A program made the translations under genes and the position numbers. Positions 7,872 through 51,910 of a DNA stretch of 64,000 nt are shown here, one piece after another (positions within the stretch are counted from its first letter, which is position 1; each line of letters starts with the position of its first letter). The notes below the pieces were generated by a model. That model made no database searches. It was not told where the DNA came from and worked only from the letters and a program-made list of their open reading frames with translations. Origin of the DNA: a virus. Lineage: Duplodnaviria; Caudoviricetes. The stretch lies in the IMG/VR virus record IMGVR_UViG_3300027819_000006; one strand, written 5' to 3'.

Positions 7872-7880
7872 CAGATATTT

Positions 7881-8048
7881 TTAAACATCAATTATGGACT
7901 CTAAATAGTAATTTGGTAACATATCTTTGTTCATTTTCAAAATATTGTTAAAACATGAATCTAAAATGTAAGTATTTGCATAATCTGTATCATTTCTTAT
8001 AGATCTACCGCAGCCTTGAAGTATCTCGACGATCGTCTTCCACTGATA
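7881..8048 (-). pseudogene. Duplicate (displaced) C-terminal 55 codons of the DinG-like helicase; predicted TnpB guide source
   Basis: YQWKTIVEILQGCGRSIRNDTDYANTYILDSCFNNILKMNKDMLPNYYLESIIDV*; 36/55 identical to helicase 9364-9531; same length (168 nt). Confidence 0.9.
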
Positions 8049-9363: not shown

Positions 9364-10977
9364 CTAAGCATCTATTATGGCATCTAAAAAATATTTTGGA
9401 AATAAATTTTTGTTCATTTTTAGCATATTATCGAAACAGGAGTCTAGAATGTAAGTTTTAGCATAATCATTTTCACTCCTTATAGATCTACCATAAGACT
9501 GTAATATTTCTGCTACAGATTTCCATTGATACCAGTCAGGCATAGTTTTCAATCTTTTCTTTACTTTTGGTGATGCTAAATTTGGAAATGGCACTTTGAC
9601 TATAATCTGAAATCTAGACAAGTCGTCTTTCAAATCTATACCATTTGTCATAGACGGAGATACAATCACTGAAGCATTTGTTGATTCATAATGCTCTTGT
9701 AGCTTGTCTTCTCTGTCATCTATATCGTGAAATATCAATCTATCATTATCAATACTGTGCATAATGATATTAGATATTTCGTAGCTATTAGTATGAATTA
9801 TGCCTTTTTCATTTTTGTGCTTATTCAAAATTGTATTTATAACTTGAGGTAAGTCTTTATAAGTATCATGTTTCTCTCTGTATGACAGCTTACCGATATC
9901 TAAATTGTACACCAATCTATTCTTGACTTCAAATGGAGAATCTAGACTCATATATGCTACATCTTGTTTTAGACCCATGTAATTTTTGAAGAAATTTTTA
10001 TTAAGAATAGTACCAGACATGAATATTACATGATCATAGTTCTTCCATATCATTTCTAGATGATCTTTGCCCCAGACTAATTCTGTTTTCAACACAGTCA
10101 AACCATCTTTATCTTTCTCTTTATAAAATACCCATTTTTCTGTATTATCTTCAGATTCATTTATAAATCTGTTAAATTTACAAATTACTTTATCTAAAAA
10201 TGAATAATCTTTTAATATTTTCAATTTTACATTTTGCACTGCAGCTAACTTGCATTGTTCTTTCAATTCTTTGTATCTAATATTTAAAACTGGTATTAGA
10301 TCATCAGTTACAAATTTAATATAAGTTTCTATTGATCCAATTCTATCAAGCTTAGACAGAAGTCTTGCATTTTTTATACCCCATCTGTTCATAGAACTTC
10401 TAGATATTGTGGAAGAAATGAATTCACAGAACACTTCTTCAAATGAATGTGCTTCATCTACGAATAGAACATTAGAACATCTTTTTTCTATAAATGTTGG
10501 AACATATATTAAATATGATAAGTAGACATGAAAATTTGCTAAACCCACTTTAGCATTTAAAAATTCTTCATATGCAGCTTTAGATGGACAGAAACTGCAT
10601 TCTGTTTTATTGAGCTTGTTTAAATCTTGTCCATCATCACAAGTCAGATTCCATTTTTCGCAGTTATAGTTATTCTTACCTTTGATACTTCTGATGAAAT
10701 CAAAATCAGCAGTATATTGATTTTGTAGAATTTTAGTATTAGTTAGAATATCAAATTTAGCATTTTTATCTATATTCTCAACATACCACTTCATTGCCAT
10801 GACAGCAAAATAACTCTTACCACACCCTACAGAAACGTCTAATAATAAAAATTTCTTCTTAGAATTGATTGACTCTTTGAAGAAATTTAACATCTGGTCT
10901 TGTTGCTGTCTTGGATTATGCTTTAGAGTGATCATAGAAAATAAATGAATGCACCTATTATAGGAATTTTGCTCCAT
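9364..10977 (-). CDS. DinG/Rad3-like SF2 helicase
   Basis: VGCGKS Walker A, FVDEAH, MSGT, IIHTNSY, SPSMTNGIDL, QSYGRSIR motif VI. Confidence 0.9.
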   Translation of the reverse strand: MEQNSYNRCIHLFSMITLKHNPRQQQDQMLNFFKESINSKKKFLLLDVSVGCGKSYFAVMAMKWYVENIDKNAKFDILTNTKILQNQYTADFDFIRSIKGKNNYNCEKWNLTCDDGQDLNKLNKTECSFCPSKAAYEEFLNAKVGLANFHVYLSYLIYVPTFIEKRCSNVLFVDEAHSFEEVFCEFISSTISRSSMNRWGIKNARLLSKLDRIGSIETYIKFVTDDLIPVLNIRYKELKEQCKLAAVQNVKLKILKDYSFLDKVICKFNRFINESEDNTEKWVFYKEKDKDGLTVLKTELVWGKDHLEMIWKNYDHVIFMSGTILNKNFFKNYMGLKQDVAYMSLDSPFEVKNRLVYNLDIGKLSYREKHDTYKDLPQVINTILNKHKNEKGIIHTNSYEISNIIMHSIDNDRLIFHDIDDREDKLQEHYESTNASVIVSPSMTNGIDLKDDLSRFQIIVKVPFPNLASPKVKKRLKTMPDWYQWKSVAEILQSYGRSIRSENDYAKTYILDSCFDNMLKMNKNLFPKYFLDAIIDA

Positions 10978-11291
10978 TTATCAACAAATCTATCTTTCCA
11001 ATCTATTTCATTAGCTCGAATATAAATTCTATTTTCATCTTTTTCATCATACTCTATGTGATACAAATCAGTTTTAAAATATGCTTTACTTTCGCATAAC
11101 TTTATAATATGTTTTGCATCATCTACACATTCAATAGATATTTTTATATACTTTTTATCTCGCACTTTATCAAGCTCACGTAATCTTGAAAAATCAAAAT
11201 AGACGACTTTTTTTTCAGCATATTTTGCATTTTTCAATTGATTCAATTTATCTATGATTGAATCTACTATATCTTCTATACTTTCTGACAT
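10932..11291 (-). CDS. hypothetical protein
   Basis: 119-aa ORF. Confidence 0.45.
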   Translation of the reverse strand: MSESIEDIVDSIIDKLNQLKNAKYAEKKVVYFDFSRLRELDKVRDKKYIKISIECVDDAKHIIKLCESKAYFKTDLYHIEYDEKDENRIYIRANEIDWKDRFVDKWSKIPIIGAFIYFL

Positions 11292-22518: not shown

Positions 22519-23763
22519 TTACAAAACCCTCTTAAGATTAGAGTTTGGTCTTGGACCTCTACCAACTTTATGGACTTCTGTCATAGTATCAATTGTATCT
22601 CCTACAGCTACAACATCCGCGCCGGCCATTCTCATATGCTCATCCCATGAACATTCTCCGCAGCCAATCCCGTCAAATAGCTTCCAGTCTTCTCCCCAGA
22701 ATTCCTGGCACAATTTCTCATATTCTAAAAATGCTTTTACTTTTTCTATATTGCCAAAACCTGAAGATAGCAAAATCTTTACATGTGGGAATCCACTGAA
22801 ATTTAGAGTATTTCTCAATCTATGAACTCCAATTGCTGCAACTCCTTTGCATAGATAGAATTTATTGTAGTCATTCACATCATCAAATGGCAAGAATCCA
22901 TTATCATACAAAATACCTTGCATGAAATTTTCACCACAAGTATCTACTCTTACATAGTCTAAATTGCTTCCTACTTTATCTAAACATTTAGCAGTATCCA
23001 GTGAGTCTGAATATTCATGATTGTTATAATCTATTAGAGCAATTCTTGGTACAGATTTATCAATGTGCTTATCAAATGCTAGAGTTGAATTTACTACAGC
23101 ATTTTCCATTCCATATTTCCAAGCATAAATATTTTCTAGTGCATGTGGAATAGTTCCTACTCCCAACTTATTTTCATCTGCTGCACCAATATCTGTAGAA
23201 CAATCATCTGCTCCACCATCAAATGCAGCCTTTGCAATTTCAGCATCCAATTCCCAGCCCCAATGTCTAGCACCCATGTAGATGAGTTTTCTATCTTTGC
23301 CAATAAGCTCTCTAATTTCTGAGAATGTCTGAAAAGTATTATCTAATATATGTTTTTCTACATATTTCTTATGCTCATCATAATGAGCTTGCTGAATATC
23401 ACTATTTATAGCATGCAGATAATTGCATGAAGCATGTAGAGTAGTTTCTCTTGAAATTACTCCAAGGTACATTGTTTCCAACTCAATAATATCTTGAATT
23501 TTAGCTTCAATGATCATGCAAGTTTCTTTTGGAGCATAATTATCTCCTTCAGATAAAGAATATATTCTTGCATCTGTCAGCTTTGAATATTTTTGTAGAA
23601 TTTCAAGAGCTTCATTTAAGCCATGTATCTGGTTATTGTTAGATTTTCTCACAAATACTTGCATTCTGACAAATGGATTGAGATTATCAGCTTTTAGAAT
23701 CTCATTTGATCTGAGAAAATATTTGTCTGTATATGGACGATGATCAATTTGCAAATTGAACAT
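22519..23763 (-). CDS. Nicotinate phosphoribosyltransferase-like (PncB/NadC fold)
   Basis: YTDKYF, ELETMYLG, MGARH, GTIPHAL, ALIDY, VRVDT, SSGFG. Confidence 0.8.
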   Translation of the reverse strand: MFNLQIDHRPYTDKYFLRSNEILKADNLNPFVRMQVFVRKSNNNQIHGLNEALEILQKYSKLTDARIYSLSEGDNYAPKETCMIIEAKIQDIIELETMYLGVISRETTLHASCNYLHAINSDIQQAHYDEHKKYVEKHILDNTFQTFSEIRELIGKDRKLIYMGARHWGWELDAEIAKAAFDGGADDCSTDIGAADENKLGVGTIPHALENIYAWKYGMENAVVNSTLAFDKHIDKSVPRIALIDYNNHEYSDSLDTAKCLDKVGSNLDYVRVDTCGENFMQGILYDNGFLPFDDVNDYNKFYLCKGVAAIGVHRLRNTLNFSGFPHVKILLSSGFGNIEKVKAFLEYEKLCQEFWGEDWKLFDGIGCGECSWDEHMRMAGADVVAVGDTIDTMTEVHKVGRGPRPNSNLKRVL

Positions 23764-24058: not shown

Positions 24059-25312
24059 ATGTATATTTATAATATGGAAACAAAAATGCTAATAGTAGAG
24101 AAACATATAATAGATAAAAATCATAAACAATGGAAAACTATTGATAATTTATGCTTGTTATCTAAAAATCTATATAATCGAGCTCTGTTTCTTATAAATG
24201 AACACTATGAAAAAGAATGTAAATTTTTAAGATACAGCAAGTTAGATAAATATATTAGAGAAACTGACAAAGAACTGTATTGTGCTCTGCCAAACAACAC
24301 ATCTCAAAGAATAATAATCAAACTAGATCAGAATTTCTTAAATTTCTTTGCTGCTTTAAGATCTTGGAAAAAAGATAAGTCAAAATTTTTAGGATGCCCA
24401 AGACCTCCAAAATATAAAGAGAAAAATGGTAGAAATTTACTTATATTTACTACTAGACAAGCCAAAATTAAAGAAGGATATATTCATTTTCCTAAAAGGA
24501 CTGGTTTGCAGCCCATTAAAACAAATGTGAAAAAACTCTGTCTAGTCGAAATCGTACCTCAAGCATCTTGCTATATAGTGAGTATAATGTATGAAAAAGA
24601 AATTTTAGATCATAAATTGAATAAAGATAATTACTTAGGAGTAGACTTAGGAATAAATAATTTAGCAACAATTACTTCAAATCAGCCTGGATTAAGTCCA
24701 ATTCTGGTTAATGGTAGAATTTTAAAATCTATCAATAGTTACTACAATAAGAAAAAAGCTAAACTTCAGTCTAGTTTAGAGAAGAATCATAAAAAAAAGA
24801 CTAGTAATAGAATTAAAAAATTAGCTCTAAAAAGAAATAATAAAATAGAATATTATATGCATCATGTTTCAAAATTTATTGTTACTCACTGTATACAAAA
24901 CGATATTAGCAATATAGTTATAGGTTATAATGAGGGTTGGAAACAAGAAGTGAATATGAGTAGAAAAAATAATCAAAATTTTACAATGATTCCATTCTTA
25001 AAGCTAATAAATCAGATCAAATATAAAGCTAAATTAAACTCTATTGAAGTTATAGAAATGGAAGAATCTTATACTTCTAAATGCTCAGCATTAGATTTAG
25101 AATCTATTGAGAGACATGAAGAATATATTGGAAAAAGAGTAAAAAGAGGTCTGTTCCAATATTCAAAAGGTCTCATTAATGCTGACGTCAATGGTTCTCT
25201 AAACATTCTCAGAAAAGTAATTGGCAATGATTTTATAAATCTAGTCAATATAGGCTGTGTTAGTCAACCAGTGAAGATCGATTTTTCACAAACAAGAGCA
25301 ATCTTGAGCTAA
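24059..25312 (+). CDS. tnpB: TnpB-family RNA-guided nuclease (IS1341-like), the only long plus-strand gene
   Basis: SKNLYN, LGVDLGINNLA, EESYTSKCS, INADVNGSLNILRK, QPVKI. Confidence 0.9.
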   Translation: MYIYNMETKMLIVEKHIIDKNHKQWKTIDNLCLLSKNLYNRALFLINEHYEKECKFLRYSKLDKYIRETDKELYCALPNNTSQRIIIKLDQNFLNFFAALRSWKKDKSKFLGCPRPPKYKEKNGRNLLIFTTRQAKIKEGYIHFPKRTGLQPIKTNVKKLCLVEIVPQASCYIVSIMYEKEILDHKLNKDNYLGVDLGINNLATITSNQPGLSPILVNGRILKSINSYYNKKKAKLQSSLEKNHKKKTSNRIKKLALKRNNKIEYYMHHVSKFIVTHCIQNDISNIVIGYNEGWKQEVNMSRKNNQNFTMIPFLKLINQIKYKAKLNSIEVIEMEESYTSKCSALDLESIERHEEYIGKRVKRGLFQYSKGLINADVNGSLNILRKVIGNDFINLVNIGCVSQPVKIDFSQTRAILS

Positions 25313-26790: not shown

Positions 26791-26832
26791 ATCAGTAACC
26801 CTTTGTTATAGATTGTTTAGTTCTTATAGTTA

Positions 26833-26861
26833 AATATAAACAATCTATGTTCAAATGTAAA
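26833..26861 (-). promoter_or_regulatory. sigma70-type promoter (class I)
   Basis: TTTACA-N17-TATATT, spacer ATAGATTGTT. Confidence 0.75.
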
Positions 26862-27028
26862 TAAAAATTTTAGTCTGTATCATGTATTACGTACACTCCT
26901 AAAACCCAAGCAACTATGGATAAGAAAAGCCAACTATCAGAATGTTGAACATACAGAATCAATTTGCACAATACTGGCCATCCTAACATCCATAGAACTA
27001 GAGCAATCTTTTTCATTTTATCTCCGTT

Positions 27029-27598: not shown

Positions 27599-28988
27599 GT
27601 GAATTAATTCCACCTAAAGGATGGAATCTTCCTGCTTCATAGAAGCTGACTTATTTTTGATACTTAAAGTATCATCAGCAGAGGTCAATTTCTCCACAGG
27701 CTTAAAGTCCCTATGTTCCATAGGTATATAAGATTGATTATTTTTACCAACCAATAAAATTGTTTTTGCAGCTTTTATATCTCTATCTTCTTCGAAATTA
27801 CATACATCACATTTGAAAATTCTATCTTTAAGAGTTAAATTTTCATTTATTACACCACATTTATAGCACATCTTTGTAGTAGGGAACCATTTGTCTACAA
27901 TATAAACATTATTAGATGATTTTAATTTAGATTTTATTTTTCCAAGATAACTATGCTGTACTTGTTTCCCAAATAAACCTTTATGCCAACCTCTTAAATT
28001 CTCATCTTGCATAAAGACTCTTAAGTGATTTGTTAGAAGATAGTTTACTAATTTATTGGCAGCATCATTTTTTTTATTTGTTATTTTCTCATACTCTTTC
28101 TGAATTTTAATTCTCAGCTTATATCTATTGTTTGAGTTCTTTTTTGATTTTGCAAGTTTTCTTTGCAATCTTTTAAGATGCTCAGATTCTTCAATAAAGC
28201 AGTTGAAAATTTCACCCTCAGAAGTAGTAACATTGTTTTTGATACCAAAATCAAGACCTAAATCTTGTTTATTACAACAACTATTTAGTTTTTCAAATGT
28301 TACAAATTCAAAACATGTTAATTTTATATAATAACCAGAAGCTTTTTTTACTAGTTTAGCATTTGCTAAATCATAATTATCTTTAATTTGTTCTAATCCA
28401 TGAACTTTTAGAGGTTTCTTTATATTGAAAATCTTAATTTTATTTTTATTTATTATCTTATGTGTATTACCATATTGCGACAGTTCAATAGAGTTATATT
28501 CTCTTTTAAATTTAAGTTTACCGATTTTATGACCATTTCTTTTTAAAACAGATAAAGATTTTATATTTTGATAAACGAGTTTTATCAAATCTTGTTTACA
28601 TTTTGATGGCAGATATTTTAATTCTTTTTCAATGAACTTGTCTTTATATTTTACTAGTATGTTTTTTATTTTGTAGTTTACATCTGATATATTATCTTGA
28701 GCAAGAATATAATTGTACAACCATTTAGCTTCTACAAACCACATTTTTAATTGCTCTTCTTGTTGTTTGTTTAAAGATGATTGATCAATTTTAAGCTCAA
28801 AAACTTTGCATCGCTGAGATTGTCTTTTAATTCTTGTCTTTCTAAGAGATTCTTTGATTTTATTTCTTTTTGACTCATTCATATAGTTTAAATCTTATAT
28901 AGTTTTGTTTATATAAATATACATGAGAAAAATTAAAAAACATTCAAAAATTCATATTCCACATAAATGTCGGAATCTTTCTTTTTGA
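27599..28988 (-). mobile_element. Non-autonomous IS200/IS605-family element (tnpB only)
   Basis: Subterminal hairpins ttccacctaaaggatggaa (right end, ending TTCAC) and ttccacataaatgtcggaa (left end); no tnpA in window. Confidence 0.75.
27614..28882 (-). CDS. tnpB: TnpB-family nuclease
   Basis: LGLDFGIK, FMQDENL, PTTKMCYKCG...CDVC, DRDIKAA. Confidence 0.9.
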   Translation of the reverse strand: MNESKRNKIKESLRKTRIKRQSQRCKVFELKIDQSSLNKQQEEQLKMWFVEAKWLYNYILAQDNISDVNYKIKNILVKYKDKFIEKELKYLPSKCKQDLIKLVYQNIKSLSVLKRNGHKIGKLKFKREYNSIELSQYGNTHKIINKNKIKIFNIKKPLKVHGLEQIKDNYDLANAKLVKKASGYYIKLTCFEFVTFEKLNSCCNKQDLGLDFGIKNNVTTSEGEIFNCFIEESEHLKRLQRKLAKSKKNSNNRYKLRIKIQKEYEKITNKKNDAANKLVNYLLTNHLRVFMQDENLRGWHKGLFGKQVQHSYLGKIKSKLKSSNNVYIVDKWFPTTKMCYKCGVINENLTLKDRIFKCDVCNFEEDRDIKAAKTILLVGKNNQSYIPMEHRDFKPVEKLTSADDTLSIKNKSASMKQEDSIL

Positions 28989-29126
28989 GAATTACGTAAG
29001 ATAAGTCATGATATGACCATCATCGATCAAAAGATGAACCTTTTCTCTTGTGTCGAAACTAATAATTACTCTATTTAAATTCTTCATTGCAATCTCCTTG
29101 TTTAATTTTATAACCATTTTGTAATA

Positions 29127-29155
29127 AATATAAACAATCTATACTTAAAAGTAAA
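29127..29155 (-). promoter_or_regulatory. sigma70-type promoter (class I)
   Basis: TTTACT-N17-TATATT. Confidence 0.75.
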
Positions 29156-29235
29156 CAATTTTGTTCAAATTCCAAAAATAAATGCTGTACTAAAAATTAA
29201 TTAGCACAGCATTTACATTCAACTTCTAACAATCT

Positions 29236-32958: not shown

Positions 32959-33034
32959 TGGAGACTCCAGTTGGAATTTCACCAACACAAAGCAATTTTG
33001 CAGATTGTTCTCTTGAATATTAGAGCATGGAGTC
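32959..33034 (-). tRNA. tRNA-Cys(GCA)
   Basis: Loop CTGCAAA; acceptor GACTCCA/TGGAGTC; T-CCA. Confidence 0.8.
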
Positions 33035-33811: not shown

Positions 33812-34033
33812 TCAATTCAGCTTATCAAACAGAAGTGCATAAAAAACTATAATTGCCATGACTACACAAAATACTGCATCAAATTTACCTTTATCTAATG
33901 TTCTCAGATGTTCCATTGGAGCATAACAGATAAACATTAATAGTAAGAGTCCATAGATTGCTCGAAACATTTTAGTAACCTTTCTTATAGACTGTTTATT
34001 TTGTATAGTATAATATAAACAATCTATAAACAA
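33812..34033 (-). CDS. small membrane protein (likely start MFRAIYG)
   Basis: Hydrophobic ORF after promoter. Confidence 0.4.
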   Translation of the reverse strand: MFIDCLYYTIQNKQSIRKVTKMFRAIYGLLLLMFICYAPMEHLRTLDKGKFDAVFCVVMAIIVFYALLFDKLN

Positions 34034-34040
34034 AAGTAAA
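34012..34040 (-). promoter_or_regulatory. sigma70-type promoter (class I)
   Basis: TTTACT-N17-TATATT. Confidence 0.7.
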
Positions 34041-34057
34041 GGAGTATTTTAAAATTA

Positions 34058-36919: not shown

Positions 36920-36945
36920 TATTGTTATTCTTCATCATTTATTAG

Positions 36946-37029
36946 TAGCTCTGGAGGGATTTCAACCCTCACTCCATTTAAGGAACATATTCTTGAAATA
37001 TGCGAGTCTAGCAATTTCTCCACAGAGCT
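36946..37029 (-). tRNA. tRNA-Leu(CAA), second copy, CCA not encoded
   Basis: CATAT-TTCAAGA-ATATG. Confidence 0.8.
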
Positions 37030-37036: not shown

Positions 37037-37110
37037 TGGTGGACTGAGATGGAATCGCACATCTACCACTAGTTTTTCAAGCTAGCACTCTTCTCCTGAG
37101 TTATCAGTCC
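37037..37110 (-). tRNA. tRNA-Phe(GAA)
   Basis: Loop TTGAAAA; acceptor GGACTGA/TCAGTCC; CCA. Confidence 0.8.
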
Positions 37111-37118: not shown

Positions 37119-37146
37119 TGGTGCACTTGATAGGATTCGAACATAT
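37119..37146 (-). pseudogene. 3' fragment of a split tRNA
   Basis: GTTCGAATCCTAT-CAAGTGC-A-CCA; complementary 5' GCACTTG at 37872-37878. Confidence 0.7.
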
Positions 37147-37159
37147 ATGAGATTTTTAT

Positions 37160-37237
37160 TGGTGGGTCTGGCAGGAATTGCACCCGCATTTTTCTCCTTA
37201 AAAGGGAGCTACAAAAGCTAATTTTTGTTACAGACCC
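37160..37237 (-). tRNA. tRNA-Lys(TTT) with a 6-bp D-stem
   Basis: Loop CTTTTAA; ACAAAA/TTTTGT D-stem; 5' end overlaps the last codons of the upstream nuclease ORF. Confidence 0.75.
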
Positions 37238-37821
37238 ATTAAAATCTTTAATTCATTTATGCATTTTAAAACATTTTCTTTAACATCTTGAGCTTCAAAT
37301 CTTATAACTTTCCAACCATTTTCTATACTAAATTTATCTCTTCTTTCATCTATTAATTTAACTTTTGGTAAATTATGTGTAGACCCATCAATTTCAACAT
37401 CAATTTTTAAATCTATAAAAGCAAAATCATAACAATATATACTATGCTGATAATTGTATATCCATCCTTCAATGTTTGAATATTCTAAAGCATTTTTGAA
37501 TATTTTTTCTGGATAACTCATTTTAGAGCAATGATTTAGTTTGTATGGAACTTTTTCTGGATGTTCCATTAAATATTTTATTCGATGTAAAGATAATTTG
37601 TTTCTAGTTTCTTCAGTGTGATGTCTGCCTGTCCAATATATTCTTGCTGATTCTGATCTTTTCTTCCTCAATATTTCACTTTTATCATTATCAAGACAAA
37701 ACATTACATGAGAAGTCATTTTTTGTGGTATATCAAAACAAAATTCTTTTTTACAATGTTTGCATACATATATTTTCATTATGATCCTCCAATTATATAA
37801 TAAATATAACTGTCGAATCAT
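37228..37821 (-). CDS. Homing-type endonuclease (NUMOD3 + DUF559)
   Basis: WTGRHHTEETRNKLS, SYPEKIF...YDFAF..IDVEIDGSTH...GWKVIRF. Confidence 0.8.
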   Translation of the reverse strand: MIRQLYLLYNWRIIMKIYVCKHCKKEFCFDIPQKMTSHVMFCLDNDKSEILRKKRSESARIYWTGRHHTEETRNKLSLHRIKYLMEHPEKVPYKLNHCSKMSYPEKIFKNALEYSNIEGWIYNYQHSIYCYDFAFIDLKIDVEIDGSTHNLPKVKLIDERRDKFSIENGWKVIRFEAQDVKENVLKCINELKILMGL

Positions 37822-37842
37822 AAAAGACTTATGTAAAAAATA

Positions 37843-37878
37843 TTTAATAAGCTAGTTCCAGTCATGGTGTACAAGTGC
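37843..37878 (-). pseudogene. 5' fragment of a split tRNA (possibly Lys)
   Basis: GCACTTG-TA-...-CTAG-CTTATTAA. Confidence 0.55.
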
Positions 37879-37896
37879 TTTTAATATTCAATATTT

Positions 37897-38007
37897 TGGC
37901 TGGCATGGTGGGTACCGCCCCCACATAATCTCCGTTAATTTTACATCTCTTAGGTTTAGCCTAATTGATGGGACAGCGGAGCGCAATTGCTTGTCTGCCA
38001 CATGCCA
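37897..38007 (-). tRNA. tRNA-Asn(GTT) with a 35-nt insertion inside the anticodon
   Basis: CTCCG-CTGT[35 nt]TAA-CGGAG; removal gives a 76-nt cloverleaf with G73-CCA. Confidence 0.75.
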
Positions 38008-38048
38008 GTATTTAAATTAGATTGTCTGCAACAATTTTTGTATAGTTT

Positions 38049-38077
38049 AATATAAACAATCTATGATCAAATGTAAA
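38049..38077 (-). promoter_or_regulatory. sigma70-type promoter driving the tRNA array
   Basis: TTTACA-N17-TATATT. Confidence 0.75.
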
Positions 38078-38088
38078 CAACTATTTTA

Positions 38089-38129
38089 ACAAAAACAAAA
38101 AAGAGATAAAACTTGAATGTCTTATCTCT
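38089..38129 (-). terminator. intrinsic terminator with competing upstream stem
   Basis: AGAGATAA/TTATCTCT plus U-tract; alternative 12-bp stem 38114-38125 / 38148-38159. Confidence 0.55.
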
Positions 38130-38336
38130 GTGAAAGCTGTACTGCATATAAGACATTCATTCTAAGTCACTGTAGGTCTATTTTCATGATTATAGCTTTT
38201 AAAACTATTAATAGACAAACTATCTGAACATTGCAGATAGTTATCTGATAATAAGTTATGTCTTTGCTGTATGGTCATATGATTAATCTCTTTAGTTGTT
38301 GCTAATATAAATATATCTTAATCATAGCAAAATGCA

Positions 38337-38993
38337 TTAAAAATCAGCAGTCTGTTCTTTGTTTGCCCAAGTATTTGTTGCTATATACTGTATCCTCTTT
38401 TCATTGACAATCTTAACTGCTTCTTCTTTACTTTTAGCCCAGATTGTACAGTATAGCACATGCTCATCTTGCAACAGACTATTTTTGAAATTAGAACTGT
38501 CATCAGAATTAAATAGATAAGGATAGAATCTTTCTTTCTTTTCAAACCATTCACATCTAGGGTCGTAGTTTTTGTCTCCATGGTTCAAATCTTCTACTGG
38601 ATCCTGGCTATAGTCTGACTCAACAATAGAATCACCATTTTCTCTCATATATACTACATAAGTTTTGTAGCCATTATTTATGAATGTCAGAGCTTTGTTT
38701 ATGTTGTCTATTCTGTTGTTCAGTTTAAATGATTCTGTAGAATATTCGCAATCTTGTTGTTCTACTAATCTATTTAATTTTTCTTTGTGATCATCTGTGA
38801 AAACTCCAATTGTCTGCATTCCTGAATATTCACCTTCATATAGAACATGAACAGTTTCTTCATTTTTCATAGATAAAATGAATCTTTCTAATAGTTCTAT
38901 ATTAACTATACCTACTAAATTCATTAATCTTCTTAGCAGATCTTGTTGTTCATAATTCAGATCATATTTTAGAACCAACTCTAATGTTTTCAT
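38337..38993 (-). CDS. hypothetical protein
   Basis: 218-aa ORF. Confidence 0.5.
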   Translation of the reverse strand: MKTLELVLKYDLNYEQQDLLRRLMNLVGIVNIELLERFILSMKNEETVHVLYEGEYSGMQTIGVFTDDHKEKLNRLVEQQDCEYSTESFKLNNRIDNINKALTFINNGYKTYVVYMRENGDSIVESDYSQDPVEDLNHGDKNYDPRCEWFEKKERFYPYLFNSDDSSNFKNSLLQDEHVLYCTIWAKSKEEAVKIVNEKRIQYIATNTWANKEQTADF

Positions 38994-39271: not shown

Positions 39272-39559
39272 CTAAAAATCATTTGGATGTCTCAATCTGT
39301 CATCCCAGAATTCATCTACATTAGGTTTATTTGCTATATAGTTTTTGATGTTCAGCCCTACTTTTTGTAATGCTTCAAATGCATCTTGCAAAGCTTGTCC
39401 ACTTCTTAGTGTCCATAGATAGACTTCTGCTCCAGCTTCTATTTCTTTCTTAATAGCATTTATTACATCCCATTTTGGCTCACCAATAGCTAGATAGTTA
39501 CTCTGAGGATCTGTGAAAGTAGTTCCATCAAAATCCAAAGCTATATGTTTTGTCATCAA
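39272..39559 (-). CDS. small HAD-like protein
   Basis: IALDFDGT, LWTLR, KPNVDEFWDDR. Confidence 0.65.
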   Translation of the reverse strand: MMTKHIALDFDGTTFTDPQSNYLAIGEPKWDVINAIKKEIEAGAEVYLWTLRSGQALQDAFEALQKVGLNIKNYIANKPNVDEFWDDRLRHPNDF

Positions 39560-40593
39560 ACTGCCATTTCTGCTGTTAATTTAGGATGGAATTGATAATT
39601 CTCTAATTCAAAATCTGTCATCACAAAATCTTCTAATTTAGTCTGTCCTCTATCTTTTATTTTTAATTTTGATTTTGGTATTTGATATGGAATTCTCTGC
39701 AGCTGTTCTTTAACTATATCTATATGATTCAAATATATATGAGTATCTCCCCCGACAAATATTAATTCGTGCGGAACAGTATTTGTAAGTTTAGCCAATA
39801 TAGATAGTAGAAATGCATATGATGAAATATTCGAGCAGAGTCCTAAAAAACTATCCACACTCCTCTGATACCATTGCAGTGACAATTTCAATTCTGGAAT
39901 TTCTATTTTTGATAATATCTGATCTAATTTTGTTGATTCTTCAAACATTCCAGTAGAAGACTCTACATCTATTTTAAGCACTTTCATTATATCATCATAT
40001 AATACAGGACTGTTATTATTTAAATAGATTAGTTTGTCAAAATTATTCATTTTTGAACAATATAGCTGTATAAGAACATGGCATGGGGGCAATGCGCATT
40101 TATCTGAACTTACTTCTGCGGGATTCCAAGCTGTAACAAGTATTCTTCTGTCATTGGGATTTTTCTTGATTGTGTCTATAACGTTTTGAAGCTGATCTAT
40201 TTCATGTTTGTATATTTCTGTTTCTACAAAATTAGCTTCTTCTTTTTCTATAAATTCCCATTTCCGCCATTGTTTGCCATAGAGTTTGCCACAATCACCA
40301 TCATCTTCATAGTTATTTCTTTTTATATAATCTGCATAGTTTCCATCCCAGAATTTATTTTTAGCATATATTTTCTTTAGATCATTGATATTGGATGAAC
40401 CAGATATGAACCATAGTAATTCTGATAATATTGAAAGAACTGGCATTTGTCGTGTAGTAATTATTGGAAATCCTTCATATATAGAAAATCTAAGCGTAGT
40501 TCCAAAGATAGATTTAGTGTCTACACCAGTTCTGTCAGATTTAGTTTCTCCATTATCTAAAATATTTTGCAATAAGTCTAAATAGTTTCTCAA
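39556..40593 (-). CDS. thyA: Thymidylate synthase
   Basis: DRTGVDT, YGKQWR, PNDRRILV, ALPPCH, QRSVD, DTHIYLNH. Confidence 0.95.
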   Translation of the reverse strand: MRNYLDLLQNILDNGETKSDRTGVDTKSIFGTTLRFSIYEGFPIITTRQMPVLSILSELLWFISGSSNINDLKKIYAKNKFWDGNYADYIKRNNYEDDGDCGKLYGKQWRKWEFIEKEEANFVETEIYKHEIDQLQNVIDTIKKNPNDRRILVTAWNPAEVSSDKCALPPCHVLIQLYCSKMNNFDKLIYLNNNSPVLYDDIMKVLKIDVESSTGMFEESTKLDQILSKIEIPELKLSLQWYQRSVDSFLGLCSNISSYAFLLSILAKLTNTVPHELIFVGGDTHIYLNHIDIVKEQLQRIPYQIPKSKLKIKDRGQTKLEDFVMTDFELENYQFHPKLTAEMAV

Positions 40594-41053: not shown

Positions 41054-41655
41054 AGAACCTCTCTAACAAATAGTGCAACTTCTATTTTTTCTCCGCATTT
41101 CATTGATAGGTCCGATAGTAATTGTTTAATAATAACTTTATCGTTTTTGATAAACTTTTGCTCTGATAGACAAACTTCTTTGAACCATTTATTCAGCTTT
41201 CCATCTACAATTTTCTGTAATAGCTCTTGTTTATCTGTTTTAAATCCTCCTTTTTCTGTCATTTCTTTCATAGTCACAATAGATAATAGATTCTGCTGAC
41301 TATTCAGCTCTCTTTCAGAAATATCTTCTTTAGAGACATACAGTGGATTTTCAGAAGCTATCTGCAGACATAGATCGTTTCCAAGAACATTAAACTCATC
41401 AGTTTTGGCCACAAAATCAGTTTGACATTTTAGTTTTAACAGAACTCCAATTTTCTTGTTAGCATGTACATATGTGAAAATTCTACCTTCAGAAGTAGTT
41501 GCATTGTTGTTTGTCAGAATCTGAATACTCTGTTCTTGCAGCCATCTGATAGCTAGTTCTATATCATTCTCTGTTTTTTCTAATGCTTCTTTACATTTTG
41601 CAACAGACACATTAGTTCTCTGTCTGAATTCTTTTATGATGTCAAGATTGTTCAT
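41050..41655 (-). CDS. tsf: Translation elongation factor Ts (short form)
   Basis: IKEFRQRTNVSVAKCKEAL...DIELAI, SEGRI, CQTDFVAK, LQIA, IVDGKLNKWFKEVCLSEQKF. Confidence 0.85.
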   Translation of the reverse strand: MNNLDIIKEFRQRTNVSVAKCKEALEKTENDIELAIRWLQEQSIQILTNNNATTSEGRIFTYVHANKKIGVLLKLKCQTDFVAKTDEFNVLGNDLCLQIASENPLYVSKEDISERELNSQQNLLSIVTMKEMTEKGGFKTDKQELLQKIVDGKLNKWFKEVCLSEQKFIKNDKVIIKQLLSDLSMKCGEKIEVALFVREVL

Positions 41656-42716
41656 TTTAGTCCTGCTTGTTTATTCAAATATTTCATGAACCAAATTCTA
41701 GCTGCTGTGCTAGCATCTCTTGTCATATCTTTTGGCTCTAAATTATTTGACTGTAATGTGTCCATTTCCTCTTTAATAATATCATTTACAACCCATTTTA
41801 GAAATGCACCAGTTCCTTTTACGTCTGGCTCAAGTGAATTTTGAGTAAAAACATATTCTATACCCTGTAAAAGTCTAGAATCTGTCACAGTATATGCAAT
41901 AAATTCATTAATAGAATTCATCTTTTCTGTATCTACTTCAGCAAGCTTTTTAACTTTAGAAGAAGAATGTTTCATCCCTTTACTTTTAAATGTAATTCTT
42001 CCAGTTTTGTTACTGTAGTTGCAAAAAACGATTCCTTCTCCTATTCCCTCTTTGCCAAAATATTTACCTACAGGACAGCAAGCTTCTACTTCTTCTGTCA
42101 TTTTCACAATTTCATTCTGCGATCTTTCAGGATAGTTAAAATCAATATCTATTGAATATGTTTTAAATTGATGAACATTATAAATTCTATTTTCATTGCT
42201 ATGAATATTTTTATATTGATCATCTGTTAGCCAATAAGCAAATACAGACTCTTCTTCTATAGCACTCATTGGAGTAATTTTAACTCCAAAAATTAAAAAC
42301 ATTTTTTCAAGTCCAGATATTGCTACTCCACCCTGAATGTTAGACCCTGCCCACTCTCCATAGATTGTAATAATGTCATCTTGTAAACTTTTAGTATCTT
42401 CATCTATTTGTTTGAACAATTTTAAAAAAACATCTTCATTAGATTTTACAAAAAATGCAAATCCAGCATTGTCATGTTCTACAGATACATTATGATTTCT
42501 TGCCTGTGCCCATATTTCTGTACCGTCGAAGGATACAGCTGCATGTGTCCCGTGAATTTTGCAAGTTCCAGTAAATGTAAGAGTTGGCAGCATTACAGAT
42601 GGATCATAGATCGCATCTCCATTTTCATCCTTACCTTTATATCTATAAGATAGCTGCACTCCTTTAATTACATTTCTGAACTGCTCAATTTCAGGAAATT
42701 TAATGAATTTTTTCAT
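41652..42716 (-). CDS. RNA ligase (Rnl2-like)
   Basis: KIHGTHAA (motif I), YGEWAG, GEGIVF, FKSKG. Confidence 0.8.
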   Translation of the reverse strand: MKKFIKFPEIEQFRNVIKGVQLSYRYKGKDENGDAIYDPSVMLPTLTFTGTCKIHGTHAAVSFDGTEIWAQARNHNVSVEHDNAGFAFFVKSNEDVFLKLFKQIDEDTKSLQDDIITIYGEWAGSNIQGGVAISGLEKMFLIFGVKITPMSAIEEESVFAYWLTDDQYKNIHSNENRIYNVHQFKTYSIDIDFNYPERSQNEIVKMTEEVEACCPVGKYFGKEGIGEGIVFCNYSNKTGRITFKSKGMKHSSSKVKKLAEVDTEKMNSINEFIAYTVTDSRLLQGIEYVFTQNSLEPDVKGTGAFLKWVVNDIIKEEMDTLQSNNLEPKDMTRDASTAARIWFMKYLNKQAGLK

Positions 42717-43846: not shown

Positions 43847-44425
43847 TTAAACACTTTTTTCTCCATGGTGATCTATTGGTTTAAACATTTTCTTATTCAT
43901 TGTCTCTTTTACTTGGTCAAAATGTAGTGGTGTAAAATTGTGGCAATCTACTCCAACATCAAAACTTAAAGAATTAGGATCATCTAGTAAAGAACCATGA
44001 CTATGTCCATATAAATGCCAAGTTCCATAGTGAGATTTATGCCATTTTTTCATAGCATAATGGCAAAGTGTGATTTCCCGTCCATTTACTTTGATCTTCT
44101 TATAGTTTTCTGTAATTGAACCAAAATATTTGTAACAATCTTTCTTGTGCTTATCTATATATCTGTCATGATCTCCAGTAATCAGATGAATAATTCCATT
44201 CAGCTTTTCTGTAAGCAGTTCTAATTCTGTAGCGCTATTTATAAAAGCAAAGTCTCCTAAATGATAAACAGTATCAGCTGGGTTGACTACAGCATTCCAA
44301 TTTTCAATCATTGTGATATTCATCTCTTGCACAGAATTGAATGGACGGTTGCAATATTCGATTATTCTAGCATGCTGGAAATGGCTATCGCTCGTGAAGT
44401 ATGCCTCAGACATTTTCTTTCTCAT
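43847..44425 (-). CDS. Calcineurin-like metallophosphoesterase
   Basis: TSDSHFQH, HLGDFA, GDHD, LCHY, YGHSH. Confidence 0.9.
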   Translation of the reverse strand: MRKKMSEAYFTSDSHFQHARIIEYCNRPFNSVQEMNITMIENWNAVVNPADTVYHLGDFAFINSATELELLTEKLNGIIHLITGDHDRYIDKHKKDCYKYFGSITENYKKIKVNGREITLCHYAMKKWHKSHYGTWHLYGHSHGSLLDDPNSLSFDVGVDCHNFTPLHFDQVKETMNKKMFKPIDHHGEKSV

Positions 44426-44795: not shown

Positions 44796-46025
44796 CTAAA
44801 CCTCGACTATATATTTAATTGTTGTCTGTGCAACGTTATAAACCATAAATTCATCATTTCTCAAATCTGCTCCCCTAAGAGCAAAAACAGAATCGTAGTT
44901 TCCCTTTGCTTTCAAATTTTTCTCATTAAGATTATAGCAATCAGAAGAATGCTTTTGAATCTTATACTGATTTCCAACATGCACATCATAAAGAGAAAGA
45001 AGTCCAGTATCTGCAGTTCCACCAGTCCAACAACTTCCTCTTTTAGAAGTATAACCTAAACTCTTCTGAAATTTATTTGCAAAGTAGATTGAATTCCCAA
45101 ACATCGCACCAGTAGATACTGCATTTGATGGCCGAATCAAAAGTCCTGTGTCCAAAATATTCCACCAATTTTCATTTCTACTTCCATGCCAGAATGTCTG
45201 AACATCTTTATTTGCAGCTTTTTCAATCCATTCATTAAATCTCTTCTGAGTCTTCACATTCTCAACTCTGAAAGCAGATATAAACGTGTTGGCATTATCT
45301 TGCATCTTCATTCTGATAGAGTTAACTTCATTCTGTTCAACTGTGTACATTTTGACTCCAATTGAATCAAGAATTGTCATTCCCTTTGACTCAATAGAAG
45401 TAGAATCATCTTTGATAGAAACCTGTCCTTTCATAACATCAAGAGTATCTTGTTCTGAACTAACAAGTCTTCTAACTGTTTCAATATTCTGATCTGTAAT
45501 GACAGGAAAATTGAATATGAAATTCTGAACCTTGTTCATCTTCCTTGGGATTACAGTATAGAGATTGAGCAGTTTTGTATTTACGGGCTGTGTAACATTT
45601 CCAATTGCGAGCATGTTTGAAATTTCATCAACAATTCTCTGTGCTTCATCTACTTGTTGCATTGTAACATTAGATACTGCAACTGTATAGTTGTCTGAAA
45701 TGCTTCTCTTTGCAAATGCTTGAAGCTTGTTGATGAATGTTTTAATCAGCGGATTTGTAATATCTATGAATCCATTAGGAGACTGAACAGTTTCTGCAAA
45801 AAGAGTGGTCACATCTTTGTAACCCTTCTTGATCTTTGACTTGTAGAGAGGTTCCCATTTTTCAATCGGATAGTTTTCTTCAGTAAATCTGCCTCCCACG
45901 CGGCCATAATTAACTTTAAAACTACCAGTGCCAGAGTCAAACATCTGATATTCTTTGTTATTGTTTTGATCCGTCACCATTATGAGCTTTACAACTTTCT
46001 TGAACTCTTTTGATTCTTCACTCAT
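44796..46025 (-). CDS. PARP-family ADP-ribosyltransferase with WGR and helical domains
   Basis: YGRVG, LYTVIPR, FWHGSR (H), GAMFGNSIYFA..KSLGY (Y), DEFMVY (E). Confidence 0.85.
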   Translation of the reverse strand: MSEESKEFKKVVKLIMVTDQNNNKEYQMFDSGTGSFKVNYGRVGGRFTEENYPIEKWEPLYKSKIKKGYKDVTTLFAETVQSPNGFIDITNPLIKTFINKLQAFAKRSISDNYTVAVSNVTMQQVDEAQRIVDEISNMLAIGNVTQPVNTKLLNLYTVIPRKMNKVQNFIFNFPVITDQNIETVRRLVSSEQDTLDVMKGQVSIKDDSTSIESKGMTILDSIGVKMYTVEQNEVNSIRMKMQDNANTFISAFRVENVKTQKRFNEWIEKAANKDVQTFWHGSRNENWWNILDTGLLIRPSNAVSTGAMFGNSIYFANKFQKSLGYTSKRGSCWTGGTADTGLLSLYDVHVGNQYKIQKHSSDCYNLNEKNLKAKGNYDSVFALRGADLRNDEFMVYNVAQTTIKYIVEV

Positions 46026-46070
46026 TTTGTATCCTCATGAATGATGAATTGAAACTATTTTGTATGATTT

Positions 46071-46099
46071 AATATAAACAATCTATGAGCAAAAGTAAA
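46071..46099 (-). promoter_or_regulatory. sigma70-type promoter (class I) upstream of PARP
   Basis: TTTACT-N17-TATATT. Confidence 0.75.
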
Positions 46100-46103
46100 C
46101 AGT

Positions 46104-46625
46104 TTATTTAGATTTTTTCATCAATTCCACATAAATTTTTTTACATGCTTCTGTACCATTCATCGCTGAATGAGGCTTATTCTCTCGTTTATGCCCAAAA
46201 TGTTCTAAAATGCAATCCAAAGAGTAATATTTTAATCTCAATGGCCAAGCCAAAGATATTGTATCTATCCAAGTGTATGAAGTAATCTCTACTCCATATT
46301 GTCTAGATGAATATGTTATAAAACTTCTGTCAAATGATGAATTATGAGCTACAAATGCAGATCCTTTTGTTATTGATTCAAATTCTTCCCAGAATGCTTT
46401 TGTTTGCAGCTGAGCAGACTTTTTCCATTCTGTCAAAACAAATCCATTCACAGCAGAAGCAGAAGGATGCATTCTATGCAGATATACAGGAAGCAATTTT
46501 CTATACCACCTGCAAAGCTCTTTAGAGCAGTCAGCATTAGTTTTTATTAAAGCTATTTCTATAATTTCATTAAATTCTGGTAAGAGACCAGTAGTTTCTA
46601 TATCTATGAAGCAGAGATTTTTCAT
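46104..46625 (-). CDS. DEDDh 3'-5' exonuclease (DnaQ-like)
   Basis: IDIETTG, AHNSSFD, WIDT, HSAMNG. Confidence 0.85.
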   Translation of the reverse strand: MKNLCFIDIETTGLLPEFNEIIEIALIKTNADCSKELCRWYRKLLPVYLHRMHPSASAVNGFVLTEWKKSAQLQTKAFWEEFESITKGSAFVAHNSSFDRSFITYSSRQYGVEITSYTWIDTISLAWPLRLKYYSLDCILEHFGHKRENKPHSAMNGTEACKKIYVELMKKSK

Positions 46626-47004: not shown

Positions 47005-47829
47005 TCATTTTGTGTTTTCGGGTATTTCGCAAATTGGTGGCATGTTCATTTTATGAGAATTGCTTGTATGGAATTTAGAATAAATATCTAATACTTCTTT
47101 TGATCTATCATCTAAATCTGCTACAAGATGATTATAATCTTGAATTGTCATAAAATTTTTATGTTCGTTAAAATTCATTGCCCATTCAAGTTCTTCATAT
47201 GAAGCTCCAATATGATCTTCATCAGACCTTCCATCTTCCCAAAGACCATCTGTTGGAGTAACTTCAATAATTCTCTTATCAATATTCATCCATTTTGCAA
47301 GTTCTCTAACTTCTGTTTTTGTAAGTTTTCCAATAGGACTAATATCTACTCCTCCATCTCCATATTTTGTGAAAAATCCCACTCCATAGTCTTCTACATA
47401 GTTTCCAGTTCCTACAACTAAAAGTTTTTCATCTGCTGCAAAATTATAGAGTGCACACATTCTGAGCCGAGACTGTAAATTTGCCATAGCAAGTTTATTC
47501 TGAACTTGATTGATTGGTAATACTCCTTTGAAAGCGTTGAAAACAGTCTCTAAATAAATGATTTTGGGCTCTGCACAATCATAAGTATTTCTAAGCCAAT
47601 ATGCATGAATAGCTGAAAGCTCGTCCGGTTCAATGGGCTTAGTGGGTAATCTAACAACAACAGTTTTCTTACCAGTCATTGCACACAGAGTAGAAACTAC
47701 AGCAGAGTCAATTCCTCCTGAAATTCCTATAATAAAACCATTCATATTAGCTTCGTTACGGTAATCTGATAACCACTGAACAATATGATTTGTAACTTTT
47801 TGACAGTTCATATTTATCCTTTCTATCAT
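47005..47829 (-). CDS. nadE: NH3-dependent NAD+ synthetase
   Basis: GISGGIDSAV, NLQSRLRM, GTGN..E, FTKYGDGG, PTDGLW..GRSDED. Confidence 0.9.
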   Translation of the reverse strand: MIERINMNCQKVTNHIVQWLSDYRNEANMNGFIIGISGGIDSAVVSTLCAMTGKKTVVVRLPTKPIEPDELSAIHAYWLRNTYDCAEPKIIYLETVFNAFKGVLPINQVQNKLAMANLQSRLRMCALYNFAADEKLLVVGTGNYVEDYGVGFFTKYGDGGVDISPIGKLTKTEVRELAKWMNIDKRIIEVTPTDGLWEDGRSDEDHIGASYEELEWAMNFNEHKNFMTIQDYNHLVADLDDRSKEVLDIYSKFHTSNSHKMNMPPICEIPENTK

Positions 47830-49626: not shown

Positions 49627-49667
49627 TTTTGCTTCCTATAGTTTATATGATTATTTTTGTATAGTTA

Positions 49668-49696
49668 AATATAAACAATCTACACTTAAAAGTAAA
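49668..49696 (-). promoter_or_regulatory. sigma70-type promoter (class I)
   Basis: TTTACT-N17-TATATT. Confidence 0.75.
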
Positions 49697-49809
49697 CAGT
49701 TATATTGACATATCCTTCAATAAATTGATCCAAGCTACAGCTACAATAGAAACACAAATAACTACTACAATCCACACTAGTGCTTCTGGCCACCTCATGA
49801 TAAAACTCC

Positions 49810-50283: not shown

Positions 50284-50721
50284 TCATTTCTCCTTCTTGA
50301 AATTTAATTTTAGTATTTTCTGTAGCCTTAAACTTGTTATATTGACAATAAATTTTTGCCATTTTCTACCAATTTCAGTAAATTCTTTTTCAGTCAACCA
50401 TTTTGTATCTTTTGTTTCATAGTGAGGCTCATCAAAATCATCTATATTGTGAACACTGCAAGCATATACAGTCATTGGATTGAATTTGCCTATTTTATGT
50501 ATATTTTCTATATTTGTTTCTTTTAATCCTAATTCTTCTTTTCCTTCTCTAATAGCAGCATCTAATTCTGTTTCTCCGTCATCTATCATTCCTTTTGCTA
50601 TCTGATATTCTAACGATCCAAAATTTTGATCACTCGGTCTCATGAACAGAAAATGAAACTCATCATCTTTTATATAAAATGGAATCATTGCAGCTCTATT
50701 TTTCTTTTCATCTACAGACAT
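50284..50721 (-). CDS. NUDIX hydrolase
   Basis: KGMIDDGETELDAAIREGKEELGL Nudix box. Confidence 0.9.
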   Translation of the reverse strand: MSVDEKKNRAAMIPFYIKDDEFHFLFMRPSDQNFGSLEYQIAKGMIDDGETELDAAIREGKEELGLKETNIENIHKIGKFNPMTVYACSVHNIDDFDEPHYETKDTKWLTEKEFTEIGRKWQKFIVNITSLRLQKILKLNFKKEK

Positions 50722-51427: not shown

Positions 51428-51464
51428 ATTGTCCTTTCAGTATTTTGTTATTTATAATATTTTA

Positions 51465-51493
51465 AATATAAACAATCTATACTCAAATGTAAA
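51465..51493 (-). promoter_or_regulatory. sigma70-type promoter (class I)
   Basis: TTTACA-N17-TATATT. Confidence 0.75.
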
Positions 51494-51910
51494 CAACTAT
51501 TTTTAGAAAATATTAAAAGCTACACATAGATATTATCTATACATAACTTTTTTAACTCATTTTATTGTTGCATCAAAACACCCTTTTAAGCAGTTTCAAC
51601 GGCTTCATTCATTGAACTCATTACTGCTGCTCCACATCCAGAACAGAATTTATTTGAGCTTTCATTTAAAGCATCAGTTAGTTTAATATTGAGCAAATTT
51701 ATATCTTGAAAATCAGATTGCCATATTTTTACAAATTTACATTTTAAAATATTTATTATATTTTGTTCTCTAATGTTGTCTCTTTCTATCTATTCATTAT
51801 TGAATAGATGTTAATTGCGGGAACATTCAGATTTTAACTGAAATTACCAGGGTTTGGAATCCTGCATTTTGTCTTTTAAACTATGTTCCCATGTTTCATT
51901 TTAATACAAA

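Follow-up and report, generated by a model that had tools for sequence, protein, structure and literature searches.

Genomic context

The DNA analyzed here, a stretch of 64,000 nt hereafter called the window, belongs to a 271,887-bp contig from groundwater metagenomes and is AT-rich (about 30% GC). It carries a tRNA array of at least 16 genes, the genes for EF-Ts, RecA, thymidylate synthase and an Rnl2-type RNA ligase, many homing-endonuclease genes, and sigma-70-like promoters. The window reads as part of a huge phage of a bacterium, the bacterial host being suggested by the EF-Ts, the RecA and the sigma-70-type promoters. On the minus strand, at 38007-37897, lies a tRNA-like gene of 111 nt with a split anticodon, the interrupted tRNA-Asn gene that is the subject of this work.

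The gene upstream of it, at 38337-38993, is an ORFan: searches of IMG/VR, of the deposited phages and of a set of 5.8 billion proteins gave no relative. It is apparently ended by a terminator-like hairpin and T run (38102-38129, minus strand), one of two terminator-like sites found in a consensus scan, against 0.1 expected in shuffles. A promoter-like site, TTTACA-17-TATATT (38049-38077, minus strand), forms the core of a dispersed motif of ~45 nt, which on the minus strand reads TGTTTAC...ATAGATTGTTTATATT. The motif has nine same-strand copies in the window (2323-2368, 7841-7886, 26831-26876, 29125-29170, 34010-34055, 38047-38092 or more widely 38036-38092, 46069-46114, 49666-49711, and 51463-51508) and more elsewhere in the contig, and it probably represents an early or middle class of promoter that belongs to the phage itself. 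The order on the minus strand is terminator, promoter and then the tRNA-Asn gene, 42 nt downstream of the -10 hexamer. With a terminator and a promoter directly ahead of it, tRNA-Asn would be the first gene of its transcription unit; the preliminary description of this DNA had placed it first after the array promoter, and the site at 38077-38049 supports this.

An asparagine tRNA is the kind of gene that this phage would be expected to keep. Across 62 ORFs, Asn accounts for 7.15% of the codons and AAT is the second commonest codon, and the tRNAs of the array, which serve AAA, GAA, ATA, AGA, TTT, and TTA, cover most of the other top codons. No second Asn tRNA was found in the 64-kb window, either by ARAGORN or by the tRNA-Asn profile search described below.

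Judged by its sequence, the array is one that mobile nuclease genes have reworked. A tract next to tRNA-Asn (37119-37878, minus strand) looks like a tRNA gene that was replaced by a nuclease-plus-tRNA cassette. It opens 20 nt downstream of tRNA-Asn with an apparent tRNA 5' fragment (starting GCACTTG), continues with an ORF for a DUF559 nuclease (37821-37228), the end of which overlaps an intact tRNA-Lys(TTT), and finishes with a T-arm/acceptor fragment ending CAAGTGC-A-CCA. Such apparent tRNA wrecks beside homing-endonuclease genes suggest that broken tRNA genes are tolerated in the array. At least eight ORFs of the homing-endonuclease type are present in the window (two DUF559, five NUMOD3, and an HNH), as are three genes for TnpB (OrfB_IS605/Cas12f-like), at 8053-9237 (minus), 24059-25312 (plus), and 27614-28882 (minus).

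Some other genes of the window deserve mention. The thymidylate synthase (39556-40593, minus strand; 345 aa) matches its Pfam profile in two stretches, which suggests an insertion within it. Identification of 39272-39559 as a HAD phosphatase was rejected, as this ORF has no Pfam match and its PHROG label is only "phosphoheptose isomerase", and the ORF at 46104-46625, although Pfam matches it to RNase T, is more plausibly the proofreading subunit of a DNA polymerase. A PARP-like ADP-ribosyltransferase, an NAD synthase, a quinolinate phosphoribosyltransferase N-terminal-domain protein, and a NUDIX hydrolase, all encoded on the minus strand (44796-46025, 47005-47829, 22519-23763, and 50284-50721, respectively), may together form a set for NAD+ salvage or counter-defence.

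Structure of the interrupted tRNA-Asn gene

The 5' exon (37973-38007, minus strand) corresponds to tRNA positions 1-35 and comprises the 5' strand of the acceptor stem, the D arm with the loop ACAAGCAA, the 5' strand of the anticodon stem, and C32 T33 G34 T35. It is followed by an insert of 35 nt (37938-37972) and by the 3' exon (37897-37937), which provides T36 A37 A38, the 3' strand of the anticodon stem, the variable loop, the T arm, the 3' strand of the acceptor stem, G73, and CCA. The insert thus interrupts the anticodon itself, separating T35 from T36 (in the register shifted by one base, G34 from T35). Because a T stands at both junctions, deletion of the shifted interval yields an identical product, and the two intervals are equivalent, as had been stated at the outset.

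When 37938-37972 was deleted in silico, ARAGORN at its default threshold called the remaining 76 nt as tRNA-Asn(gtt), in agreement with the 76-nt tRNA-Asn(GTT) with G73-CCA initially proposed for this locus. The insert-free form has an acceptor stem of 7 bp, a D stem of 4 bp with one G-T pair, an anticodon stem of 5 bp, and a T stem of 5 bp, so that all 21 of the 21 stem pairs are intact. Its anticodon loop is CTGTTAA, G73 and an encoded CCA stand at the end, and the T1-A72 pair and G73 are those of a bacterial-type tRNA-Asn. Other splice registers would lead to ATT, which is also Asn, or to GTC (Asp); the T1-A72 pair and the comparison with the phage tRNA-Asn family favour Asn with GTT.

The unspliced gene of 111 nt was missed both by ARAGORN with introns allowed and by a search with the Rfam tRNA model at a cutoff as loose as E<=10, and a cloverleaf with a 7-nt anticodon loop showing GUU is present only after in silico removal of the 35 nt. 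A custom scanner for cloverleaves with enlarged anticodon loops, the calls of which were confirmed by ARAGORN, returned exactly one locus in the window, this tRNA-Asn; 30 shuffles that preserved the dinucleotide composition of the window, 3.8 Mb over both strands, contained no such locus.

The insert

The insert begins CCCAU, ends AAAAU, and contains a hairpin (37944-37970, minus strand) in which a 2x2 internal loop separates a basal stem of 4 bp from an upper stem of 5 bp, capped by a loop of 5 nt, with two unpaired bases before the hairpin and six A/T-rich bases after it. The predicted folding energy of -8.9 kcal/mol (z = -4.28) was matched by none of 200 shuffles, and the pairings are the CATC/GATG and TTAGG/CCTAA first noticed in the insert. 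In the predicted fold of the precursor, the anticodon stem can gain two weak pairs, with a 3x6 internal loop then lying at the base of the insert.

It had been remarked that this insert fits neither the self-splicing introns of bacteria nor the introns of archaea and eukaryotes, and the present tests agree, given its 35 nt, the lack of an Rfam intron or ribozyme match, and the lack of a bulge-helix-bulge. The Rfam search covered 37200-38700 and gave no intron or ribozyme at E<=10. Group I and group II introns are excluded by the length and by boundary rules that the insert breaks (group I introns end in G, and group II introns follow GUGYG...AY). Nor can a bulge-helix-bulge be drawn: its central helix, placed by hand, would be CUGU/AAAU, with two of four pairs, and the fold has the 3x6 internal loop instead.

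Other origins and modes of excision were rejected as well. The core motifs of a hammerhead are absent from the insert by eye. Excision as a minihelix by RNase P and RNase Z does not fit, since the hairpin is unlike a tRNA acceptor/T minihelix and the enzymes would not cut at the required bonds, which are offset from the hairpin by 2 nt and 6 nt; there is no NCCA tail either. A double cut of the colicin-E5 type at the two UGU motifs would leave a loop of 12 nt. The insert is single-copy in the window, which rejects a repeat, a MITE or a copy of local sequence as its source. Avoidance of the site GTTAAC, which the insert splits, was also dismissed, there being seven such sites in the window and 8.5 expected.

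Relationship to phage tRNA-Asn genes

The 17-nt anticodon arm in its uninterrupted form was found, exact, in 69 IMG/VR loci, and in 62 of these ARAGORN called a tRNA-Asn(gtt), representing 43 distinct sequences. A profile of the tRNA-Asn family was made from 40 uninterrupted phage genes and searched against the whole window, on both strands. The two best matches (nhmmer) were the two exons, 38004-37973 for profile positions 4-36 and 37938-37897 for positions 36-77, and they abut at one profile position, inside the anticodon. The spliced form scored 35.9 bits against this profile, a value with some circularity in it, since the anticodon arm was the criterion for choosing the family; the D arm, the acceptor stem, G73, and CCA likewise align to the profile. 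The interrupted tRNA-Asn is up to 69% identical to the 43 distinct phage sequences.

An unusual elbow

The interrupted tRNA-Asn departs from the canonical tRNA elbow, in which the D loop has G18 G19 and the T loop has T54 Psi55 C56 ... A58. Its D loop, ACAAGCAA, does not contain the usual GG, and its T loop, GGCGGTA, has no T54, Psi55 or A58. The complete T arm, GTGGG-GGCGGTA-CCCAC (37908-37924, minus strand), is identical in other phage tRNAs and in several tmRNAs. This 17-mer occurs exactly in 12 IMG/VR loci. In eight of these (7 distinct sequences) it occupies the T-arm position of other tRNA-like genes, namely Ala types with G3-T70, Ile GAT, Met-like CAT, Thr CGT, and Gln TTG; three are phage tmRNAs and one is apparently a chance match. 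The GGCGGTA loop is also found on other T stems in further phage tRNAs (twice in locus L147, at 3293 and 7425, and a second time in locus L311, at 5927), and several of the phage tRNAs with this loop were confirmed by Rfam at 33-49 bits. Among bacterial genomes, the 17-mer stands in the 3' T arm of tmRNA genes at 11 loci (Saccharibacteria/Patescibacteria and Pelagibacteraceae), and all five of the loci tested were Rfam tmRNA or alpha_tmRNA at the gathering score.

The D loops of the phage tRNAs that share the T arm have a common motif centred on A-A/T-A-G-C/T, for example AATAGCAA, GACAAGTAAG, AATAAGTAAA, and GAGAAGCGA, to be compared with ACAAGCAA of the tRNA-Asn. The core GG-GGCGGTA-CC of the T arm recurs in unrelated phage tRNAs and in tmRNAs (among loci L306-L317 and L318-L355), often as the exact 17-mer, together with D loops that have no GG, and no published description of this T-arm type was found in the literature searched. 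The phages with the 17-nt T arm showed no further match to the tRNA-Asn gene and no Rnl2 homolog, and are therefore not close relatives. One of the loci with the GGCGGTA loop, L147, is an IMG/VR contig of 58,892 bp that contains a class A bacterial RNase P RNA (181 bits), a tmRNA, and more than 30 tRNAs within 9 kb (features at 8848-9131 and 10741-11084).

Remodelling of the elbow is general in the phage of the window. Deviant T loops are present in other tRNAs of the array, on the minus strand: TGAAATT in Cys (32959-33034), TGCGATT in Phe (37037-37110), TGCAATT in Lys (37160-37237), and TTGAAAT in Leu (36945-37029), and some of these tRNAs also have a D loop with no GG. Because the GGCGGTA loop is present in tRNAs confirmed by Rfam and in tmRNAs, it is best taken as a functional variant, and the tRNA-Asn body evidently belongs to a recurrent, functional type of phage tRNA. 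Neutral, long-term decay of the gene is excluded, since its stems are intact and its elbow recurs elsewhere. The gene is not a tmRNA either: its match to the alpha_tmRNA model is partial (11 bits, over the T arm), it has a complete D arm and anticodon stem, and G3 pairs with C70 rather than forming G3-U70, so that it is not alanine-accepting as tmRNA is. A tmRNA-type T arm common to unrelated phage tRNAs points to a class with a redesigned elbow.

Search for relatives and for other interrupted phage tRNAs

Neither the region 37600-38400 nor the gene alone gave a relevant BLAST match among deposited phages, and the exact 24-mer formed by the T arm and acceptor did not occur in IMG/VR. Among the IMG/VR tRNA-Asn genes with the same 17-nt anticodon arm, none had an insert of 12-42 nt at the site, versus 62 that are uninterrupted. 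Exon patterns with gaps of 15-45 and 12-42 nt in IMG/VR, and of 15-45 nt in the JGI metagenomes, returned only chance matches in coding DNA. With a gap of 44-74 nt in IMG/VR, only chance matches in coding DNA and one unrelated tRNA, L222, were present among the matches listed. In ~1 Mb of phage loci containing tRNA-Asn genes, no anticodon-loop insert was found, and inserts of this sort are rare.

A search for inserts at the same site of phage tRNA-Asn genes, with covarying stems, had been suggested as a check of the original proposal, and it turned out negative, with no homologous insert in IMG/VR, the JGI metagenomes or the deposited phages. As there is no relative with the same or a similar insert, the hairpin has neither conservation nor covariation behind it. 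Logan contigs of sequencing runs showed no variant of the locus; those of two runs are probably the source assembly, and the low-depth contigs of two others leave 37897-38005 uncovered. The closest relative of the window's RNA ligase (described below), 70% identical, is on a contig of 2.8 kb that is too short to reach the tRNA, and in 80 IMG/VR loci linked to Rnl2 the only interrupted tRNA was the unrelated L048. The two unrelated cases are both phage tRNA genes with an insert in the anticodon loop. L048:8477-8599 is Pro/Tyr-like, with an ambiguous register and an insert of 50 nt, and L222:146-278 is Ile-like (Ile/Thr, register ambiguous), with an insert of 60 nt in an array of 12 tRNAs; both were recognised by ARAGORN once their inserts had been removed. 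No description of a splicing mechanism or of this type of insert was found in the papers searched.

Candidate processing enzymes

Two genes on the same strand, 3.6-6.5 kb upstream of tRNA-Asn, are of interest for its processing. The first (41652-42716, minus strand) is a ligase gene by its matches to Pfam RNA_ligase and to the PHROG RNA ligase, and its product shares ~40% identity with phage proteins that carry the annotation RNA ligase 2. A search of PDB with the single sequence gave no match, while the family profile matched T4 Rnl2 (2HVQ, residues 36-299, E 7.5e-9), that is, beyond the catalytic domain. In the family alignment, K53, H55, G56, and T57 of motif I (K-x-H-G-T-N) are invariant. 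By these features the protein belongs to the Rnl2 family of RNA ligases. The second gene (43847-44425, minus strand) encodes a calcineurin-like metallophosphoesterase (Pfam Metallophos_2; PHROG phosphoesterase, E 4e-52). An Rnl2 ligase and a phosphoesterase within 4-6 kb had been part of the preliminary description, and the Pfam, PHROG, and T4 Rnl2 profile matches agree with it.

The ligase is a candidate for sealing the tRNA after removal of the insert, a link drawn from its proximity, and the metallophosphoesterase is, by a similarly conditional link, a candidate for healing the ends. T4 Rnl2 prefers nicks in duplex RNA, not open anticodon loops, and we know of no natural substrate or role for Rnl2. 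No EndA, RtcB or polynucleotide kinase was found in a Pfam scan of the 69 larger ORFs of the window.

Comparison with known systems

The closest published parallel is in the tRNAs of Lak megaphages, which have "enigmatic", unexplained introns in the anticodon loop (Devoto et al. 2019, Nat Microbiol, PMC6784885). According to Table S6 of that work, the Lak inserts have 79-114 nt and begin with a small hairpin and an A/T-rich stretch, followed by a tRNA-like module (PMC6784885). Like these, the present case is a huge-phage tRNA with a short interruption of the anticodon loop that has no Rfam class and no known splicing mechanism, and here too a small hairpin lies 1-2 nt past the 5' junction, with an A/T-rich stretch behind it. 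The differences are the length (35 nt instead of 79-114 nt) and the content, a hairpin only instead of an embedded tRNA-like acceptor/T-arm module. Moreover, the Lak introns are identical across cohorts, whereas no second copy of the tRNA-Asn insert was found, and this insert splits the anticodon itself. Compared with the published Lak introns, the insert is shorter and simpler, has no tRNA-like module, and divides the anticodon, and it is of a kind barely described.

Archaeal and eukaryal tRNA introns are recognized by a bulge-helix-bulge, with two 3-nt bulges and a 4-bp helix; they are cut out by EndA or TSEN, and the exons are sealed by RtcB or Trl1. The tRNA-Asn insert resembles them in being short, not self-splicing, and in the anticodon loop, so that an endonuclease and a ligase would be needed. 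Unlike them, it is at position 35/36 (or 34/35) instead of 37/38, forms no bulge-helix-bulge, and belongs to a phage with a bacterial host, with no EndA or RtcB among the 69 window ORFs. The group I tRNA introns of bacteria, such as that of the cyanobacterial tRNA-Leu(UAA), have ~200 nt or more, a P1-P9 core, and a terminal G. In common with these, a bacterial-type tRNA is interrupted in or next to the anticodon and the 5' exon ends in U, but the insert has only 35 nt, ends in U (or A), and has no Rfam match. In T4, finally, the cut made by PrrC in an anticodon loop is healed by Pnkp and sealed by Rnl1. The similarity is that of a phage RNA ligase, here of the Rnl2 family, whose gene lies close to tRNA genes and which would seal a broken anticodon loop again; the difference is that the break in T4 is damage inflicted by the host and not the removal of an encoded insert, and that no Pnkp kinase is present in the window ORFs scanned.

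Interpretation

The reading that we favour, with a confidence a little short of even, is that of a working tRNA-Asn(GUU) gene interrupted by a mini-intron that does not splice itself but is removed by proteins. The phage promoter would produce a precursor of 111 nt plus a leader, in which the anticodon stem would carry an irregular extension, formed by an asymmetric internal loop and then by the insert hairpin of 4+5 bp. Protein nucleases, of the host or of the phage, would cut both ends of the insert, while the remainder of the cloverleaf would keep the tRNA halves together. An RNA ligase, most likely the Rnl2-type enzyme of the phage, would then join the halves, with the phosphoesterase healing the ends if needed, and the joining would restore the loop CUGUUAA. 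Transcription, both cuts, ligation, and the use of the product in translation are all steps that we infer.

Several observations argue for the mini-intron. Removal of the insert restores a full cloverleaf with a consensus Asn loop, T1-A72, G73, and CCA; the tRNA body is specialised and undamaged, and the gene has a promoter of its own in a phage that needs an Asn tRNA; and a clean, significant hairpin lies exactly inside the anticodon. A ligase and a phosphoesterase are encoded nearby, and there is precedent in the Lak megaphages and in L048 and L222. Against it weigh the lack of conservation of the insert, the lack of a candidate nuclease in the window ORFs scanned, the preference of Rnl2 for duplex nicks, and the tolerance of the array for broken tRNA genes. 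Of the three readings originally offered, the protein-spliced mini-intron is thus the best supported, indirectly, by the intact specialised body, the promoter-proximal position, the sole Asn tRNA of the window, and the nearby ligase, with the failure to find a homologous insert counting against it. Nothing specific emerged in favour of the second, an anticodon-nuclease decoy, and the third, a collapsed intron remnant, is indistinguishable from any other recent insertion and has no group I terminal G.

A recent inactivation, for example a 35-bp palindromic insertion during repair of a homing-endonuclease break, would have left a young pseudogene that has not yet decayed, and this we consider unlikely, although it is the strongest of the alternatives. 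The insert is unique, with no homolog in IMG/VR, the JGI metagenomes or the deposited phages; the window is rich in homing-endonuclease genes (DUF559, NUMOD3, and HNH) and in TnpB genes; apparent tRNA fragments flank a DUF559 gene only 20 nt downstream; and no splicing enzyme was identifiable among the window ORFs scanned. However, a random insertion would strike the 7-nt anticodon loop ~9% of the time, and a random 35-mer would rarely fold so well, as the shuffles indicate. The gene has no other damage, keeping all its stem pairs, the CCA, and the promoter, the insert is neither a repeat nor a copy of local sequence, and with a pseudogene here the window would supply no Asn tRNA to a phage that makes heavy use of AAT.

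Improbable, in our view, is a functional 111-nt tRNA-like RNA that is processed at its ends, left unspliced, and not used in decoding, in which the extended arm would be a handle for proteins (as a nuclease decoy, a regulator or a stable RNA). The structurally constrained body with its tmRNA-type T arm and the well-formed hairpin are consistent with such an RNA, and phage tRNA clusters do encode stable RNAs that are not tRNAs, as the cluster of T4 does with species 1 and 2. Yet the exons keep the features of a decoding Asn tRNA (CTGT/TAA, T1-A72, and G73), as found in the 43 distinct uninterrupted phage sequences, and an anticodon-nuclease decoy should rather display the 7-nt loop uninterrupted. 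In addition, the RNA has no Rfam match and, with G3-C70, would not accept alanine as tmRNA does. Something else altogether accounts for the small remaining share of probability.

Bacteria and their viruses are not known to remove tRNA introns by any route other than self-splicing, and to our knowledge short, non-catalytic inserts in the anticodon loops of phage tRNAs have been reported once, in the Lak megaphages, and never explained. The tRNA-Asn gene is about the smallest and simplest example, with a single hairpin in an otherwise functional-looking gene and an RNA ligase nearby. The wider proposal, that a virus of bacteria splices a tRNA by means of proteins, with nucleases that need neither a ribozyme core nor a bulge-helix-bulge and with sealing by a phage Rnl2-type ligase, is put forward more tentatively than the mini-intron itself. 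If the tRNA is spliced, it would be a compact substrate for finding the nuclease and the ligase involved; if the wider proposal is true, it would provide a natural substrate for Rnl2 and a third route of tRNA splicing.
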